This document shows, piece by piece, positions 5,515 to 63,708 of a stretch of 64,000 nt of DNA. Source of the stretch: an uncultured Eubacteriales bacterium (GTDB lineage: Bacteria > Bacillota > Clostridia > Oscillospirales > CAG-272); contig CAJLXA010000002.1 of the NCBI GenBank assembly GCA_905210485.1, positions 4,168-68,167 of the forward strand. The letters are read 5' to 3'. The position numbers were made by a program, and so were the translations under genes. Numbering within the stretch: position 1 is the stretch's first letter; the number at the start of each line of letters is the position of its first letter. The notes under the pieces were generated by a model, which was not told where the DNA came from, searched no databases, and saw nothing but the letters and a program-made list of their open reading frames with translations.

Positions 5515-5554
5515 AAAAAAGAAAATGCAAACAAAAGTTTGCATTTTCTTTTTT
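5515..5554. terminator. bidirectional intrinsic terminator (Rieske gene / trxB)
   Basis: 18-bp perfect stem AAAAAAGAAAATGCAAAC / GTTTGCATTTTCTTTTTT with loop AAAA. A/T tracts lie on both sides. It sits between convergent genes. Confidence 0.85.
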
Positions 5555-26316: not shown

Positions 26317-26572
26317 GTTTTTTGCCTCCTGTTATATTTTTGCTCTTTCAAGGGGGCGGTTTTGGTTTCACACGCTGTCGCGCGTTTCTTTCCGTGTCAT
26401 CTAAAAACCCGAATCCCTGTCCCTCGCGGGAACCGAATTCAGGTACAGACTTCGGCGTGTGTCTTTTGCTTATCGGCAAAAGAGGAAACCGTCGCTTCGC
26501 CCATTTTCGGACATGCTCCACGAAAATTCCCCGCATATCTGCGGCAACCTCTCGCTTCTTCGCACATCAAGC
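26317..26572 (-). promoter_or_regulatory. ~256-nt GC-rich, hairpin-rich 5' leader of the S10-spc-alpha cluster
   Basis: Lies between the predicted TSS (~26572) and the rpsJ ATG. Local hairpins include CCGCA-GATA-TGCGG and CTTTTGC-CGATAA-GCAAAAG. A long-range complement pairs CACACGC (26369-26375) with GCGTGTG (26455-26461). Confidence 0.5.
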
Positions 26573-26607: not shown

Positions 26608-26968
26608 GGAATTTTTTACATTTTGACACTCCTCATATGTAGAAATTTTTAAAATATTTTTGATATTTTTTGTTCAATTTGAACAATTTTCATTGTTTTT
26701 GAAGATATGGAAAGTGATTTTTCATTTGATTTATCGTTTTTTGCGTAGGATTTCACCATTTTTTCCTCTTTTTTCATGAAGAACCGGCGCATAAACGCGT
26801 TTGTTTTCACTTTGTTCATATTTCAAAACCGTTTTCGTTGTATAATACAAGAAGGCGATTGCGGGAATCCGAAGTTTCCCTTTTGTATCGTTCTCGCCCC
26901 GCCGGCCGTTATTTCCGGCTGTCTATATAATATAAAGGAAGGTTTTCCTCGCGGAAAAGTGGTAATCC

Positions 26969-32926: not shown

Positions 32927-34045
32927 TTATTTACGGTCGCGTTCATCAAGCGCCGCCAGTCCGAGGCGAAATGCCTCCGCAACAATGCGGCGGTCTTCCG
33001 GGTCCTTGCTGTGGAAAGCACCCGACAATGTACGATAAAGTTCTCCGCGCACGCTCATATCACGCGCAAGATATTCCGCGCCTTTCAGCGGCAAAGTGTC
33101 GTCCATGATCGAAAGTCCGTAAAGACCGAAGGTTTCGCCGATGTCCGGCAAAAGAAATTCGGGCGGCAAAATCCCCTCCAGTTTCAGGCGCAGAAACGTT
33201 TCCTCGCCGTAACCGCTTTTGGCAATATAGGACTTTATGGCGGCAAACAGCGTATCGGAATCCCCGACATCGGTAAGCGTTACCGTTTCGTCAAGATAAC
33301 GCCGCGCGGAATAGGCATGAAACACAAGCGACGGTTCTTCGTTTGCCGGTACGTCAACGGTCACCGCTCCTCCGAAACCGGGCATATCGAAACTGCGCCC
33401 CTCCATGGCGCCGGGAGTAAAGATCAGCGGTTTGTTTTCGTACACCGTCATACCGACGGACGCGCTGTTTCCCGTCACGCAAATATTCGCGCCGAAGCGG
33501 CGTATCACGGCCGCCGTTTCTTCGGTATACGGCGCGGCGCAAAGAAGAACATGCGTTTTCCCGTCGTCTGCGGCGCGCATATCTCCGAAACGTTCATCAA
33601 GCGGCGGCGCGTCCGTTTTGTCACAGAATCCGTAAAACGTCACATCGGGGAAATCGAACCGCGTCGGCGCCGCTTCGCTGAAAACATACATATTCTGCGG
33701 CAGGCGCGCCGAGGCGTAAAACACGGGAAAAAGCGAAGCCTCTCCCTTGCCGGGCGCAATAATAAAATGAAGCGACGTATGTTCTTCGGCTTTTGCGATG
33801 ACAAAGGAAAGCGTGTCTCCCGTCAGAAAATCCGCGTCAAACAGATCGCCGGCAATCAGAATATACGACACACCGCTGTCCTCCGCGTCGGAAAGCATAC
33901 GCGAAAAAGAAGCGCGCGCCGCGGTGCGCCGCGCCCGCATAGATTCCGCCGTGAGACCGGCAAAAGGCGCGTCAAACCGCACGCCGCCGCATACCGTGAA
34001 TCTGACGCCGGTATCTACGGTCTCCGTTGTATTTTCATGATCCAT
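32927..34045 (-). CDS. calcineurin-like metallophosphoesterase-fold protein (YhaO/SbcD-like) with degenerate metal motifs
   Basis: YILIAGDLFD matches motif II. Start MDHENTT follows GGAAAGGAG. The ORF-track start at 34105 overlaps a terminator hairpin and is rejected. Confidence 0.6.
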   Translation of the reverse strand: MDHENTTETVDTGVRFTVCGGVRFDAPFAGLTAESMRARRTAARASFSRMLSDAEDSGVSYILIAGDLFDADFLTGDTLSFVIAKAEEHTSLHFIIAPGKGEASLFPVFYASARLPQNMYVFSEAAPTRFDFPDVTFYGFCDKTDAPPLDERFGDMRAADDGKTHVLLCAAPYTEETAAVIRRFGANICVTGNSASVGMTVYENKPLIFTPGAMEGRSFDMPGFGGAVTVDVPANEEPSLVFHAYSARRYLDETVTLTDVGDSDTLFAAIKSYIAKSGYGEETFLRLKLEGILPPEFLLPDIGETFGLYGLSIMDDTLPLKGAEYLARDMSVRGELYRTLSGAFHSKDPEDRRIVAEAFRLGLAALDERDRK

Positions 34046-34061
34046 AACAGGCTCCTTTCCG

Positions 34062-34101
34062 AAAAAGCAGAAGAACGGTTTTGGAAAGTACCGTTCTGCT
34101 G
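34062..34101 (-). terminator. intrinsic terminator inside the 5' leader, 17 nt upstream of the start codon (attenuator candidate)
   Basis: On the minus strand: CAGCAGAACGG-(12-nt loop)-CCGTTCTTCTG, 10/11 bp, followed by CTTTTT, then the RBS GGAAAGGAG. Confidence 0.65.
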
Positions 34102-34174
34102 TCATAATACTGTAGTAAAATCTGTTGATAAACTTGTATTACCCGACAAGCGAAAATACTTGCTTGCAAGGGTA

Positions 34175-34304
34175 TTTTTGCGCCGGACATCAGGGAAAGC
34201 GGGCGGCGTTAAAGCGCCGCATGAGACGCGCATCGCGTGGCTCTGATTGCGCTTCCGCGCAATCTTTCCGCTTGTATTATACCATTTTCGATAAAAGGTT
34301 TCAA
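34175..34304 (-). repeat. conserved promoter plus three-hairpin leader element, copy 1
   Basis: On the minus strand: TTGAAA (34299-34304), 17 nt, TGgTATAAT (-10 at 34276-34281), then ACAAGCG. Hairpins: ATTGCGC-GGAA-GCGCAAT (34246-34263), ACGCG-ATG-CGCGT (34226-34238), GCGGCG-CTTTAA-CGCCGC (34203-34220). Tail: CGCTTTCCCTGATGTC-CGG-CGCAAAAA. A second copy lies at 61556-61684. Confidence 0.6.
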
Positions 34305-34471: not shown

Positions 34472-36034
34472 ATGCTGAATACCGCTGTTCGCAACACCAA
34501 TAAATTGATACGTCAAAAATCGCAGAGCGAGGGCATCCGCATCGGCAACCGCTTTACAAAAAAAGCCACCGCGCGTCTGATGGCGTCCATCCCCGCTTAC
34601 AGCCGGCGGGACTGCGTTTATCTTCTCGATCCCGGTGCCGGAACAGGTATTCTGACCGCCGCCGCCGCCGAAGAACTGGCGCGCGCCGGGGTATCCGAAA
34701 TTCACGCGGATCTTTATGAGACCGACGCCGATATGCTTCCGACTCTGGAAAACAATATGCGCCGCGTGCGCCGGAAATGCCACCACGATTACGGGGTGCG
34801 CTTTCGGTTTCGTATTCTTTCCGAAGATTTTCTTACCGCTTATGCCGACGACGGAAAGGACAAGCCGCATTATGACTATGTATTCATGAACCCCGACGAT
34901 GAGCAGGAAGACAAGGACGCCGATGCCGTCGGGCTCTACCGCACCGCTTTCAGTATCCCCGTCAGCCGCGCGTTTTATTTTCTTGACGCGGCGCTCCGCG
35001 CCCTGAAAGACGGCGGCCATCTCGTGGCCGTAGTTCCGACGCTTTTTGCCACCGCCGACTCCTGCGAAAAACTGCGCGCCCATCTCTTCTCCGGTTATGC
35101 GGTGCCGCGCGTCCATCTGTTTTCCGCAAAAGATAAGATCAGAGATATTGACGGCAGCCGGCGCGACGAACTGAAAAAGCACATGCTTCTGTATTGCGTA
35201 AAGTCCGCTCCGCTTACCGAGATCGCCTACAGCGATTCTTACGATGACGGCGAAGCGGTTACGATGCTTCCCGTCTTCCCGCGCTCGTTTGCCGTGCGCG
35301 GCGACAAATGCCGTATGTTGCTCCTGCAATCCGAAAAGGAATACGCCGCCATCAGAGCGCTCGAAAGTCTTCCCGAAACGCTCACCACGCTCGGTCTCCG
35401 TATGAGAACAGGGCTTGTAATCCCTTCCCGCTATACCGAACTTCTTTATAACGAACCGACCGACGATACGATACCGCTTCTCTCCCCGCGCGGTATACGG
35501 AACGGTCACATCGACTTTCCCCTTGCCGAAGAAAATCAGTATATAAAACCGCGGATCCCTTCTCTTGCGCAGGACAACAAAAACATGTTGCTTCTGAAAC
35601 GCGTGCCCGCAAAAGCCGACGGACGGCATCTGTATGCGGCGGTTTATCTCGCCTCCCAACTGCCCTACACACAGAAAATCAGCACGGAAAACAAACTTAT
35701 CTATGTGGACTACGCCGACGGACGCGAACTTGACGCTCCGCTTCTGCACGGCCTGTACGCACTTGTCAACTCCACACCTTATGAATGTTACTGCTCCATT
35801 CTTTCAAAATCCGCACAGGTCAACGCCGGAGAATATAAAAACCTGCCGTTTCCCGATGCGGAAGCCATTCGTAAAATCGGGCGTACAATGATGACTTCCC
35901 GCCAGTACACGGCGCGGATCTGCGATATTCTCGCCAGAACCGCCCTGCGCCTGCCGACGGAAGAACAGCCCGCACAGGAAAAAACCGGCTTAAACGATTC
36001 GTCCGAAGCGGAAAAATTCGCCGTTCTGTCGTAA
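34472..36034 (+). CDS. Eco57I/TaqI-like N6-adenine DNA methyltransferase homologue with degenerate motif IV (NPDD)
   Basis: Motif I LLDPGAGTGILT (34622-34657). The motif IV position reads FMNPDD (NPDD at 34889-34900) instead of NPPY/F/W. Long C-terminal TRD-like region. No nuclease gene nearby. Confidence 0.6.
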   Translation: MLNTAVRNTNKLIRQKSQSEGIRIGNRFTKKATARLMASIPAYSRRDCVYLLDPGAGTGILTAAAAEELARAGVSEIHADLYETDADMLPTLENNMRRVRRKCHHDYGVRFRFRILSEDFLTAYADDGKDKPHYDYVFMNPDDEQEDKDADAVGLYRTAFSIPVSRAFYFLDAALRALKDGGHLVAVVPTLFATADSCEKLRAHLFSGYAVPRVHLFSAKDKIRDIDGSRRDELKKHMLLYCVKSAPLTEIAYSDSYDDGEAVTMLPVFPRSFAVRGDKCRMLLLQSEKEYAAIRALESLPETLTTLGLRMRTGLVIPSRYTELLYNEPTDDTIPLLSPRGIRNGHIDFPLAEENQYIKPRIPSLAQDNKNMLLLKRVPAKADGRHLYAAVYLASQLPYTQKISTENKLIYVDYADGRELDAPLLHGLYALVNSTPYECYCSILSKSAQVNAGEYKNLPFPDAEAIRKIGRTMMTSRQYTARICDILARTALRLPTEEQPAQEKTGLNDSSEAEKFAVLS

Positions 36035-40763: not shown

Positions 40764-40894
40764 TGATCACAGAGCGAGCCTGAAAGAGAAAAAGCCGCCA
40801 TAGCCCCTTTACCGATTTACTGTCCGTTTTATACGGATTGTCGGCGTGTAAAAACGGTTATCTTCAACCGAAAACACACGCCGAAACCGGTTAT

Positions 40895-40923
40895 ATTATA
40901 CCATTTTTTTGTCATAAAAACAA
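40895..40923 (-). promoter_or_regulatory. extended -10 promoter of the ibrA/ibrB-like cassette
   Basis: On the minus strand: TTGTTT (40918-40923), 17 nt, TGgTATAAT (-10 at 40895-40900). About 125-nt 5' UTR containing a CGGCGTGT...ACACGCCG hairpin. Confidence 0.55.
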
Positions 40924-60304: not shown

Positions 60305-60320
60305 GTAAACTATTGTTTAC
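60305..60320. promoter_or_regulatory. 16-bp perfect palindrome between crp-family gene and rubrerythrin gene
   Basis: GTAAAC-TATT-GTTTAC overlapping the crp-family stop codon, about 40 nt upstream of the rbr ATG. Confidence 0.4.
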
Positions 60321-60975
60321 TTTCTATTTGTTTTAATGCACTTTCCGACAAAATTTCCACTGTCCCGTGCGATACACGGATCGCACCGAGTTCCCGGAAT
60401 TTACGCAATATACGCGTAACCACCTCTCGCGCGGATCCGATATAGCGGGCGATCTGTTCATGCGTTAGGTGCAGTTCCCTGCTTTTTGTTTCTTCCGCTT
60501 CCCGAAGCAGAACGTCTGCGATGCGGCTGTCCACACTGCGGAACAAAATATCCTGCATATGCGAGGTAATCGCCGAAAACGTTTCGGATGTCATGCGCAG
60601 AATCTCACATTCGGCCGTACGGTTTTCACGCAATATGCGCGCCATTACCTGCGGCGGAACAATGTCCAACACCGTATCTGTCTCGGCGGAAAAGTACACG
60701 TCCGCGGTCACATGACGTAATATACAAACCGATGACAGCACGCAGGTCATACCGGCGGTGAGGAAGAAAATCGTCGCTTCCCGTCCCTCTTCGGACAAAA
60801 TGGAAACGCCCACTTTGCCGCCCGTCACACGCATCATGCCAAGGCACGGGTCTCCGTGAGAATGAATGAGCGTGCCGCGTTTATAAGATACGGTATACGC
60901 GCTTTCGGAAATATGTCGTTTTTCTTCTTCGGTCAGCGCCTTATAAAACGGAATATCTGTCAGCATCGTTGTCAT
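60310..60975 (-). CDS. Crp/Fnr-family transcriptional regulator
   Basis: cNMP-binding-like N-terminal domain and C-terminal HTH ARYIGSAREVVTRILRKF, with a CRP-like R-E-x-x-x-R recognition helix. Confidence 0.85.
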   Translation of the reverse strand: MTTMLTDIPFYKALTEEEKRHISESAYTVSYKRGTLIHSHGDPCLGMMRVTGGKVGVSILSEEGREATIFFLTAGMTCVLSSVCILRHVTADVYFSAETDTVLDIVPPQVMARILRENRTAECEILRMTSETFSAITSHMQDILFRSVDSRIADVLLREAEETKSRELHLTHEQIARYIGSAREVVTRILRKFRELGAIRVSHGTVEILSESALKQIESKQ

Positions 60976-61303: not shown

Positions 61304-61555
61304 ATAAACCTCTCATTCCGAAAGGAATCGCAGCCGAACCCGGCATTAGGTCATTCCTTTCATTTTATTATATAAGCGGGAAAATTTGCTCGCATTGGTT
61401 TTCCATCATCATGTTTCAACGGAAACGGCGGTTTGTGTTACATAAAGCGCAGGGTAACGGCCGTTGCCGACAAAATTTCCGATCCGGTATCGTCTCTGCG
61501 ATATTATATCGTAGGACATTGCCGCCTGTGTCCGATGAATCATAATCTGTAACCG

Positions 61556-61684
61556 TTTTTGCGATAGACATCAAGGAAAGCGGCGACGGTGTGCCGTCGC
61601 TTTGGCGCATGCATGTGCGCCTTGGGATTGCGCACCGCGCAATACCTACGCTTGTATTATACATCATTTCCATGAAATATACAA
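61556..61684 (-). repeat. conserved promoter plus three-hairpin leader element, copy 2
   Basis: On the minus strand: TTGTAT (61679-61684), 17 nt, TATAAT (61656-61661), then ACAAGCG. Hairpins: ATTGCGC-GGT-GCGCAAT (61627-61643), GGCGCA-CATGCA-TGCGCC (61604-61621), GCGACGG-CACA-CCGTCGC (61583-61600). Tail: CGCTTTCCTTGATGTC-TAT-CGCAAAAA. Confidence 0.6.
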
Positions 61685-61783: not shown

Positions 61784-61826
61784 CTGTGACAATATCACAG
61801 AATGAAAAAGTTTTTTTGTCTATAAT
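61784..61826 (+). promoter_or_regulatory. CRP-type palindrome about 41 bp upstream of the predicted TSS, plus the -10 box of the flavodiiron gene
   Basis: CTGTGACAATATCACAG (61784-61800, 7 of 8 symmetric pairs, TGTGA/TCACA half-sites) and TATAAT at 61821-61826. Confidence 0.55.
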
Positions 61827-61854: not shown

Positions 61855-63708
61855 GTGAACTTCATGTATTGCATAAGAAAAATAACAAAAGATCTCTTTT
61901 TTGTAGGAGGAAACGACCGTCGCCCCGGTCTCTTTGAGGGCGTATATGCCGTTCCGGACGGCGTGTCGTATAACTCCTATCTTCTCGTCGACGACGTAAC
62001 GGTTCTGTTCGATACCGTTGACGCCTCTGTCAGCAAACTCTTCTTTGAAAATATCGCGCATGTATTGGACGGACGTCCTCTCGATTACGTCATCGTTCAG
62101 CATATGGAACCGGATCATTCGGCGTCGCTTCACGAACTGCTCCTCCGCTACCCGGACGTGAAGATCATCTGCAATAAGAAAACAGCCGAAATGATGCAGC
62201 AGTTTTTCGGCCGCATTGACAACGACCGGTTTCAGCTTGTGACCGAGGACAGCGCTTTCAAAACCGCCCGTCACGATTATCGCTTCCGTATGGCGCCGAT
62301 GGTACATTGGCCGGAAGTCATGGTCACTTATGACGCCGTTGACCGTATTCTTTTCTCCGCGGACGCATTCGGCTGTTTTGGTGCGCAGAACGGCGCACTG
62401 TTTGCCGATGAAGTGGATTTTATGCGCGACTACCTTGATGAAGCCCGCCGTTACTATACCAATATCGTCGGAAAATACGGAACGCAGGTGCAGGCGCTTC
62501 TCCGGAAAGCGGGTGCGCTCGATATTGCCATGATCTGTCCGCTCCACGGCTTTGTTTTCCGCAAAAACATCCCCGACATTCTCGGATATTATCAAAAATG
62601 GAGCACCTATACGCCCGAAAGTAACGGCGTCATGATCGCATACGCCTCGGTTTACGGCAATACTGCCAATATCGCCGATATTCTTGCCGCGCAACTCTTT
62701 GAAAAAGGCGTAAAAGCCGCGGTCTACGACGTATCGGTGACGCCGGCCCCCGACATCATCGCTGCATCGTTCCGTTACAGTCATCTCGTCTTTTTATCCA
62801 CTACCTATAATGCCGGCATTTTCGTCGCCATGGAAAATCTCCTGCGCGATCTCGCGGCGCATAACATTGCCAATCGTACCGTTGCACTCGTGGAAAACGG
62901 TTCGTGGGCGCCCACCGCGGGGAAACTGATGCGCGACATTCTCACGCCCTGCAAAAACATGCATTTTCTTTCGGACGTACTGACCGTGCGCTCCGCGCTC
63001 CGGGAGGACGGACTTCCCGCCGTCTATGCACTGGCGGATACGATCGCCGCCTCGGTGGGTGCCGCCGGCGAAACTGCATCGCCTGCCCCCGGCGCCATTG
63101 ACAACACCGCTCTTTTCCGCCTTTCTTACGGCCTCTATCTGCTGTCCGCACGCGACGGCGATAAGGACAACGGTTGCATTATCAACACGGCGCAACTTCT
63201 CACCGACGCTCCGAAAAAAATCGCCGTTACAGTCAACAAAAAGAATTATACGCACGATATGATCCTGAAAAGCGGCTTCTTCGCCCTCTCCGTTCTGTCG
63301 GTCGACGCGGATTTTGAAACCGTCCGCCGCTTCGGCTTCGTCAGCGGGCGTGATACCGACAAATTCACGGACGCGGAAAAACAGTCGCGTACAAAAGACG
63401 GCACCGTCTTTCTTACGCACGGCACAAACGCCGTTATCGGTGCGCATGTGACGGATACCGTGGATTGCGGTACGCACACTCTGTTCATCGCCGAATTAAC
63501 GGAGGCATGCGCATTGTCCGATTCCGATTCCGCAACCTACGCCTATTATCAGGAACACATGAAGCCGCGTCCCGCCCCGGCGGAAGAACGTAAAACCGGT
63601 TTTGTCTGCAAGGTCTGCGGTTACGTATATGAGGGGGAAACGCTCCCGCCGGACTTTATCTGTCCGCTCTGCAAACACGGAGCGGAAGAATTTGAGCCGC
63701 TGAAATAA
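61855..63708 (+). CDS. four-domain flavodiiron protein: metallo-beta-lactamase-like diiron, flavodoxin-like, flavin-reductase-like and rubredoxin domains
   Basis: Diiron motif VQHMEPDHSAS, flavodoxin-like IAYASVYGNT, flavin-reductase-like core (SYGLYLLSARDGDKDNGCIINT), C-terminal CKVCG...CPLC. GTG at 61855, or possibly the ATG at 61864. Confidence 0.85.
   Translation: MNFMYCIRKITKDLFFVGGNDRRPGLFEGVYAVPDGVSYNSYLLVDDVTVLFDTVDASVSKLFFENIAHVLDGRPLDYVIVQHMEPDHSASLHELLLRYPDVKIICNKKTAEMMQQFFGRIDNDRFQLVTEDSAFKTARHDYRFRMAPMVHWPEVMVTYDAVDRILFSADAFGCFGAQNGALFADEVDFMRDYLDEARRYYTNIVGKYGTQVQALLRKAGALDIAMICPLHGFVFRKNIPDILGYYQKWSTYTPESNGVMIAYASVYGNTANIADILAAQLFEKGVKAAVYDVSVTPAPDIIAASFRYSHLVFLSTTYNAGIFVAMENLLRDLAAHNIANRTVALVENGSWAPTAGKLMRDILTPCKNMHFLSDVLTVRSALREDGLPAVYALADTIAASVGAAGETASPAPGAIDNTALFRLSYGLYLLSARDGDKDNGCIINTAQLLTDAPKKIAVTVNKKNYTHDMILKSGFFALSVLSVDADFETVRRFGFVSGRDTDKFTDAEKQSRTKDGTVFLTHGTNAVIGAHVTDTVDCGTHTLFIAELTEACALSDSDSATYAYYQEHMKPRPAPAEERKTGFVCKVCGYVYEGETLPPDFICPLCKHGAEEFEPLK

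Follow-up and report, generated by a model that had tools for sequence, protein, structure and literature searches.

The hairpin and five-U tract at positions 34101-34062, in the leader of a degenerate SbcD-like gene on the minus strand of the window (the whole stretch of 64,000 nt analyzed here), may be a constitutive, leaky and moderately strong intrinsic terminator, a tentative reading to which slightly less than an even chance is given. According to this model, a strong promoter would start transcription at about 34275, and the first 138 x n nt of the leader would be a strain-variable tandem array of cloverleaf units. A fraction of the polymerases would stop at the hairpin, yielding a non-coding RNA whose length would be about 75 nt with a further 138 nt for every unit, and the remaining polymerases would read through to produce the mRNA of the SbcD-like gene; the repeat would not serve as a sensor for the leader terminator. 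We infer both that transcription stops at 34062 and that it stops there only partially. A preliminary description of this DNA had proposed an attenuation or riboswitch-like architecture for the leader. What stands of this proposal is a strong promoter followed, ahead of the ribosome-binding site, by a non-coding, terminator-like hairpin with a U-run; the switch and its sensor domain are not supported. The coordinates of the features are collected in Table 1.

Table 1. Features of the SbcD-like gene leader and of the second repeat locus in the window
Feature	Positions	Strand	Basis or remark
5' arm CAGCAGAACGG	34101-34091	minus	direct reading
Hairpin loop UACUUUCCAAAA, 12 nt	34090-34079	minus	direct reading
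3' arm CCGUUCUUCUG	34078-34068	minus	direct reading
U-tract CUUUUU	34067-34062	minus	followed by C at 34061
Terminator-like hairpin, CAGCAGAACGG / CCGUUCUUCUG	34068..34101	minus	reading and RNAfold
Ribosome-binding site GGAAAGGAG	34060-34052	minus	direct reading
Sigma-70-type promoter TTGAAA-17-TATAAT, TG-extended	34276..34304 (-10 at 34281-34276)	minus	11/12 matches
One whole 138-nt repeat unit	34138..34275	minus	covariance model R1, 81.7 bits, E = 3e-18
P1 of repeat unit	34273-34268 with 34202-34197	minus	fold
Hairpin 1, GNRA loop	34264-34245	minus	fold
Hairpin 2	34243-34223	minus	fold
Hairpin 3	34220-34203	minus	fold
Conserved tail UCCCUGAUGUCCGGC	34196-34182	minus	fold
A/U-rich hairpin H4	34181-34150	minus	fold
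Junction UUGUCGGGUAAU	34149-34138	minus	fold
Spacer, repeat to hairpin	34102..34137	minus	begins ACAAG (34137-34133), truncated start of next unit; contains in-frame ATG 34105
Weak promoter-like site TTATCA-16-TATTAT	34131-34104	minus	inside spacer
372-aa degenerate SbcD-like metallophosphoesterase homologue	32927..34045	minus	homologue comparison
Type II methyltransferase-like gene, divergent	34472-36034	plus	
Second locus: promoter TTGTAT (61684-61679), 17-nt spacer, TATAAT (61661-61656)	61527..61684	minus	
Second-locus repeat unit	61655 to about 61555	minus	truncated after CGCAAAAA; model alignment continues to 61527

For the hairpin itself, the earlier account of an 11-position stem with 10 pairs followed by CTTTTT was confirmed on the minus strand, the unpaired position being a C/U mismatch. 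The distance between the U-run and the ribosome-binding site, previously given as 6 nt, was corrected: the U-run is separated by 1 nt from GGAAAGGAG and by 5 nt from the AGGAG core. The energy of the leader hairpin is -13.6 kcal/mol (z = -2.45 relative to shuffles; RNAfold), and that of the bare hairpin is -12.5 kcal/mol. With six G-C among its 10 pairs and five U's that begin 1 nt past the stem, it has the stem and U-tract of an intrinsic terminator; it differs from a typical terminator by its loop of 10-12 nt (versus 3-8 nt) and by its energy of -12.5 kcal/mol, and a standard terminator scan missed it only through the 8-nt maximum loop of that scan. As the loop measures 10-12 nt, the stem contains a mismatch and the five U's are preceded by a C, termination could be very inefficient. 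The hairpin sits in the non-repeat part of the leader, and its sequence is invariant in 10 of the 10 strain contigs examined; the 88 nt between the repeat end and the ATG are identical in 10 strain contigs, next to a polymorphic repeat.

How often such a structure would arise by accident was estimated by a scan of our own on both strands, in which a site was a single hairpin of -12 kcal/mol or lower whose end lies within 2 nt of T5. The window contains 35 such sites as compared to 11.4 +/- 2.8 in 20 dinucleotide shuffles, an excess of about threefold that is concentrated in intergenic DNA, with many weak sites inside genes. The leader hairpin is among the weakest of the 35, and about one third of the sites this strong in the window are expected by chance. 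For a leader of 230 nt, the chance expectation is about 0.02 from the shuffles and about 0.04 from the density in coding sequences, or about 2-5% overall, and an accidental origin of the hairpin with its U-run is unlikely. It is quite improbable that the leader hairpin and T-run are functionless products of chance, a reading favored by the number of shuffle sites and by the many weak intragenic ones, and opposed by the 0.02-0.05 sites expected per leader, by an orientation and a placement just before the ribosome-binding site that fit a function, and by the invariance among the 10 strain contigs, though all of these represent one species.

The putative terminator can also be compared with others in the window. 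Most clear gene-end terminators have energies of -16 to -29 kcal/mol, tetraloops, and six or seven U's. The apparent gene-end hairpin directly after the rubrerythrin gene reaches only -12.6 kcal/mol, and the attenuator of the S10-Clostridia leader likewise has only five U's; weak stems and tails of five U's thus seem to be employed in this window. Five 25-nt palindromes of the form AAAATGYAAA...TTTRCATTT (family D1) were also noted in the window, at 5522, 7048, 26599, 30347 and 53558. For the member at 5521-5548, a bidirectional T-run hairpin was scored as well, and, judging from their sequences, these palindromes could be a shared operator or terminators.

The layout of the leader agrees in most respects with the preliminary description. 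The sigma-70-type promoter was verified with its upstream TG, and the start of transcription would fall at about 34275-34270. The three conserved hairpins and the A/U-rich hairpin were recovered on folding, CGCUUGU is indeed complementary to ACAAGCG, and the order of promoter, structured RNA, hairpin with U-run and ribosome-binding site is present. An upstream start codon at 34105, which had been named as a condition that would make the hairpin coding, was rejected: a ribosome-binding site is present for the ATG at 34045 only and none precedes 34105, the homologue N-termini align to MDHENT with five homologues beginning at or near it, and the 20-residue extension from ATG 34105 is covered by none of them. 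The ATG at 34045 is accordingly genuine and the hairpin is non-coding. As a speculation, transcripts initiated from the weak promoter-like site in the spacer would begin within the 5' arm and would thereby escape the hairpin.

The protein encoded downstream has no Pfam, NCBIfam or PADLOC match of its own, and its relatives carry PF00149. Motif I, D-x-H in the homologues, is G-x-R here. This protein and its two nearest homologues (46% and 40% identical) have lost the first metal-binding motif and are no longer matched by PF00149, and all three are, from their sequences, probably catalytically inactive. Gene order is kept in both of these relatives, with SecG, a divergent type II methyltransferase-like gene, the SbcD-like gene and a large downstream gene that in the window encodes a Big_3-domain protein.

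In the orthologous leaders of these two relatives (L133 and L134), a promoter occupies the corresponding position (one reads TATAATACAAC), and the 5' untranslated regions are only about 60-70 nt long. Neither a repeat unit (by search with the covariance model R1) nor a hairpin followed by a U-run was found in these two leaders. Each has a GC hairpin just 5' of a GAAAGGAG ribosome-binding site of the same type as that in the window, and such hairpins next to the ribosome-binding site, devoid of a 3' U-run, may fit a translational or stability role equally well. In an alternative reading, the window hairpin would be a non-terminating element of the 5' untranslated region that modulates mRNA stability or translation, the U-run being incidental for transcription and pairing weakly with GGAAAGG. 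Besides the orthologous hairpins, this alternative, which is unlikely but carries appreciable weight, draws on a U5 that in L134 lies on the other side of the hairpin and pairs with GGAAA, on the minimum-energy fold of the window leader, which pairs GCUUUUU with AAGGAGC, and on the weakness and large loop of the window hairpin. However, T5-tailed hairpins are strongly enriched in intergenic DNA here, the pairing of which the tract CUUUUU is capable with the ribosome-binding site is very weak, and the hairpins differ in sequence and position between orthologues, so that their homology is unproven. A leaky terminator is still the preferred reading of the window hairpin.

Upstream of the hairpin lies a repeat whose full unit of 137/138 nt is composed of a four-way cloverleaf, a conserved tail, the A/U-rich hairpin H4 and the junction GUCGGGUAAU. 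In the SbcD-like gene leader (copy 1), one whole unit (34275-34138) is followed by the five first bases of the next. Both copies in the window form the same four-way junction, in which P1 (AAGCG/CGCUU) encloses three hairpins, and in both the cloverleaf is followed by the tail UUUCCYUGAUGUC...CGCAAAAA; conservation between the two extends from the -10 box through CGCAAAAA and then ceases. Sequence conservation applies to hairpin 1 and the tail, whereas hairpins 2 and 3 keep only their shape. P1 and hairpin 3, which abuts P1 with no linker, together amount to 12 bp in either sequence type (6+6 and 5+7).

The covariance model R1, built from three units of the thioredoxin locus, recovers the sequence type of the SbcD locus at 82 bits (E = 3e-18) and detected no additional copy, either elsewhere in the 64-kb window or in the loci of the relatives. 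In the R1 alignment, which was fitted to the model and represents only about three independent sequence types, 92% of the pair cells hold standard pairs as against 30-48% with slid partners, and 16 of the 41 pairs are changed on both sides. Independently of this alignment, strain variants of H4 at the SbcD-like locus display double changes from A-U to G-C and from U-A to G-C. As judged from these sequence comparisons, the structure of the repeat unit is under selection and maintained by compensatory changes. Two G-U wobbles of the repeat are on the sense strand, which favors a fold in the sense-orientation RNA (or the equivalent DNA strand). Two further hairpins were noted in the unit. At the unit junction, 34133-34152 (-), a local hairpin GCUUGU-CGGGUAAU-ACAAGC, also seen in L007, L020 and L136, competes with P1 and the foot of H4, and its variants keep 5-6 of 6 pairs; internal units of an array may therefore fold unlike the first unit. 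On the opposite strand, H4 forms a hairpin of -14.4 kcal/mol at 34140-34174 (+) followed by UUUUUGCG, so that each type-1 unit could, on folding grounds, double as a weak antisense terminator.

The second repeat locus of the window lies upstream of a thioredoxin / Crp-Fnr / rubrerythrin operon, and both window repeats directly follow a TATAAT box. Strain loci were gathered from other human-gut metagenome assemblies via the exact thioredoxin and SbcD-like proteins. Among these strains, the thioredoxin locus has one, two or three units with a period of 137 nt, and the SbcD-like locus one or two units with a period of 138 nt. A third locus, on contig L020, consists of at least two units followed after about 110 nt by tRNA-Ala(CGC). 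With two loci in the window, the one on L020 and a copy number that depends on the strain, the element is a variable-number tandem repeat. Many assemblies of the species (L139-L143, L013 and L017) end or carry runs of N inside the arrays at both loci, breaks that the tandem repeat explains. From these gaps and ends it appears that short-read assemblies collapse the array; unit counts taken from such assemblies, the window included, are therefore unreliable, and the single unit seen here may be an underestimate. Each of the three arrays stops at a different point of the unit. We infer from the compared sequences that the promoter belongs to the gene and that this lineage gained the array at the start of transcription.

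Two additional observations concern the promoter regions. A palindrome, TGTGATATTGTCACA, with perfect arms at 61785-61799, lies between the promoter of the thioredoxin operon and a divergent flavodiiron/rubredoxin-type gene (61864-63708, +). It is conserved in all strain contigs, the thioredoxin operon encodes a Crp/Fnr regulator (60310-60975, -), and from its sequence the palindrome is likely an operator. The -10/start context TATAATACAAG recurs outside the repeat loci at 26841-26890 (+) and 40887-40900 (-); the occurrence at 26841 precedes GCGATTGCGGG, a sequence similar to a unit start, but model R1 is negative there. This recurrence could reflect a preferred promoter context or a microhomology site for acquisition of the repeat.

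For the leader to act as a conditional attenuator, the cloverleaf would have to sense a ligand, a protein or a tRNA and thereby control formation of the terminator. The order of promoter, structured RNA, terminator and ribosome-binding site and the structural conservation with compensatory changes would both suit such a device. The preliminary description had found no antiterminator by eye, and the folding check likewise finds none. In the fold of the full leader the hairpin arms pair with a probability of 0.8-1.0. When the transcript is truncated ahead of the 3' arm, the 5' arm stays essentially unpaired, and a fold barred from forming the hairpin is less stable by 10 kcal/mol; no two mutually exclusive structures, terminator and antiterminator, are seen. 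The best antiterminator candidate by eye is the tail CUGAUGUC, which could pair at 7 of 8 positions with GACAGCAG, located at the base of the 5' arm, and this too has been counted in favor of a switch. However, a leader of this size should contain about 0.3 such 7/8 matches by accident (an estimate), and the tail is equally conserved at loci that have no terminator.

The distribution of the repeat also argues against a conditional attenuator. A sensor would be conserved before orthologous or related genes, whereas L133 and L134 lack the repeat and its other copies precede the thioredoxin operon and tRNA-Ala. No hairpin with a U-run was found after the repeat at the thioredoxin locus, and on L020 the repeat is followed only by a weak irregular hairpin of -7.9 kcal/mol, the only good terminator of that contig being located after tRNA-Ala. 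Because these two loci are without a comparable terminator, the leader hairpin is not an integral end of a repeat RNA gene. Regulated attenuation is unsupported, as the upstream RNA is a copy-variable repeat that follows the promoters of unrelated genes. The sequence comparisons offer good evidence that such a variable-copy element, found before a DNA-repair-like gene, a redox operon and a tRNA, would be unlike a riboswitch or T-box-type sensor. Together with the strain-dependent number of units and the absence of an Rfam match, these observations leave the conditional attenuator with only a small probability. Leader-peptide attenuation was rejected, since the upstream AUGs have no ribosome-binding site.

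A different possibility is that the repeat acts on the terminator, either by modifying the polymerase in a put- or EAR-like manner or through ribosomes that translate an open frame and mask the 5' arm. This is very unlikely, even though the repeat is promoter-proximal and upstream of the hairpin and a frame of 43 codons (89 with two units) runs uninterrupted across the 138-nt units. None of the upstream AUGs is preceded by a ribosome-binding site, the first AUG is in the loop of hairpin 2, and one open frame of three is expected about 30% of the time (an estimate), so that the frame is, by its sequence, probably due to chance. Moreover, the unit length at the thioredoxin locus, 137 nt, is not divisible by three, the remaining loci are without terminators to read through, and no similarity to put or EAR was found in Rfam. 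The open frame itself spans 34102-34233 (-) and is also present in the L137 leader; its UGA (34104-34102) lies 1 nt before the stem, and in AUGA it overlaps the in-frame ATG at 34105.

A bolder proposal would regard the cloverleaf unit as a new class of promoter-proximal, tandemly amplifying functional RNA, either a tRNA-like module, its P1 and hairpin 3 stacked coaxially over 12 bp, that is excised from leaders by RNase P or RNase Z, or a cis element that alters the polymerase at the hairpin. Its copy number would then tune the SbcD-like gene, the thioredoxin operon and the tRNA, and the hairpin would be a repeat-dependent checkpoint. We consider this proposal improbable and continue to prefer a constitutive leaky terminator to which the repeat is not coupled.

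The identity of the repeat was pursued in several searches. Rfam 15, used at the gathering threshold for the window and at E up to 10 for the three repeat contexts, gave chance-level matches only, with no riboswitch or leader family among them. A scan of 185,579 species-representative genomes with GCTTTCCYTGATGTCNNNCGCAA returned six matches, none accompanied by the other repeat blocks; three of the six share a similar flank, which we take to be methyltransferase coding sequence. The metagenome scan yielded one true locus, L020, and the 112 matches from scans of viral contigs were all devoid of an adjoining CGC[AG]AAA block. No match was obtained by blastn of the repeat against phage and plasmid collections, and a literature search on the motif strings of the repeat returned nothing relevant. 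A spurious 206-aa open reading frame called across the three-unit array, when used as a protein query, led to only one further strain. Orthologues of the thioredoxin locus were sought via the Crp/Fnr regulator, the nearest homologues of which are at most 42% identical, making orthology unreliable.

Several known classes of element were considered for the repeat and rejected. Hammerhead and hairpin ribozymes, suggested by CUGAUGU and UGAUGUCC, misfit at the core positions and are negative in Rfam. A tRNA is likewise rejected: ARAGORN is negative for the window, and the only match of the Rfam tRNA model is the true tRNA-Ala on L020. A MITE with target-site duplication was dismissed as well: the TAATACAAG flanking copy 1 is the start of the next unit, and the arrays end at differing points. 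No terminal inverted repeats, target-site duplication or associated transposase were found for the repeat.

As a terminator, the leader hairpin would be ordinary, and it should not be catalogued as a riboswitch candidate. The more interesting object is the strain-variable structured repeat, which Rfam does not contain. Its unit sits exactly at the transcription start of unrelated genes and expands and contracts between strains of an uncultured human-gut Clostridia lineage. If either its copy number or the hairpin affects expression, the length of the leader repeat would offer a simple heritable way to tune a gene.

Among known systems, the leader attenuators of Firmicutes (riboswitch platforms, T-boxes, PyrR and ribosomal-protein leaders) share the order of elements seen in the SbcD-like gene leader. 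The window has an example of its own, an S10-Clostridia leader (Rfam RF03136, 43 bits) at 26497-26569 (-), behind which comes a -18 kcal/mol hairpin with UUUUU (26443-26408). The whole region, 26408-26569 (-), represents a textbook case of a leader attenuator that is useful as a positive control, and its U5 tail resembles that of the leader hairpin. In contrast to these attenuators, the SbcD-like gene leader has neither an antiterminator nor an anti-antiterminator, its stem is weaker and its loop measures 12 nt; its upstream structure is a variable-copy repeat common to unrelated genes and absent from the orthologous leaders.

Type III toxin-antitoxin systems (ToxIN, CptIN and TenpIN) combine a promoter, tandem structured RNA repeats, a terminator and a gene. 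There, the ratio between repeat RNA and mRNA is set by a terminator that leaks, and the same logic is the behavior proposed for the SbcD-like gene leader. An order of array, putative terminator and gene occurs at the SbcD-like locus in two-unit strains and not at the other two loci. The units differ in length (137-138 nt here, not about 36-45 nt), the gene is a syntenic SbcD-like homologue rather than an endoribonuclease of the ToxN/AbiQ/CptN type and has no PADLOC match, and the repeat also precedes a thioredoxin operon and a tRNA gene. Membership in type III toxin-antitoxin systems therefore fails on account of the gene, the lack of a PADLOC match and the presence of the repeat at unrelated loci.

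With tRNA-like structures, the repeat shares a four-way junction, short linkers, and a 12-bp stack of P1 and hairpin 3 that is similar to the acceptor plus T arm, and one repeat array lies just upstream of a tRNA-Ala gene. It differs from a tRNA in having no T-loop or D-loop motifs and no CCA end, and neither ARAGORN nor the Rfam tRNA model recognizes it.

Dispersed structured intergenic repeats with variable tandem copy number include mycobacterial MIRU-VNTR, pneumococcal BOX, enterobacterial ERIC, REP/BIME and the Neisseria Correia elements. No homology of the present repeat to a described family was found in Rfam, by blastn against phages and plasmids, in the literature or among the 185,579 representative genomes. 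Its unit differs from those of MIRU, BOX, ERIC and REP in that it forms a four-way junction plus a hairpin instead of a simple palindrome, is placed immediately after the -10 box at both window loci, is known from one uncultured gut lineage only and has no recognizable transposition signatures. Nevertheless, like MIRU-VNTR, BOX, ERIC, REP/BIME and Correia elements, it consists of short non-coding units that occur at several loci, are co-transcribed with flanking genes and have predicted stable folds, with a copy number that depends on the strain and with short-read assemblies broken at the arrays. By analogy, dispersed structured intergenic repeats with variable tandem number appear to be the elements whose behavior the repeat matches most closely.
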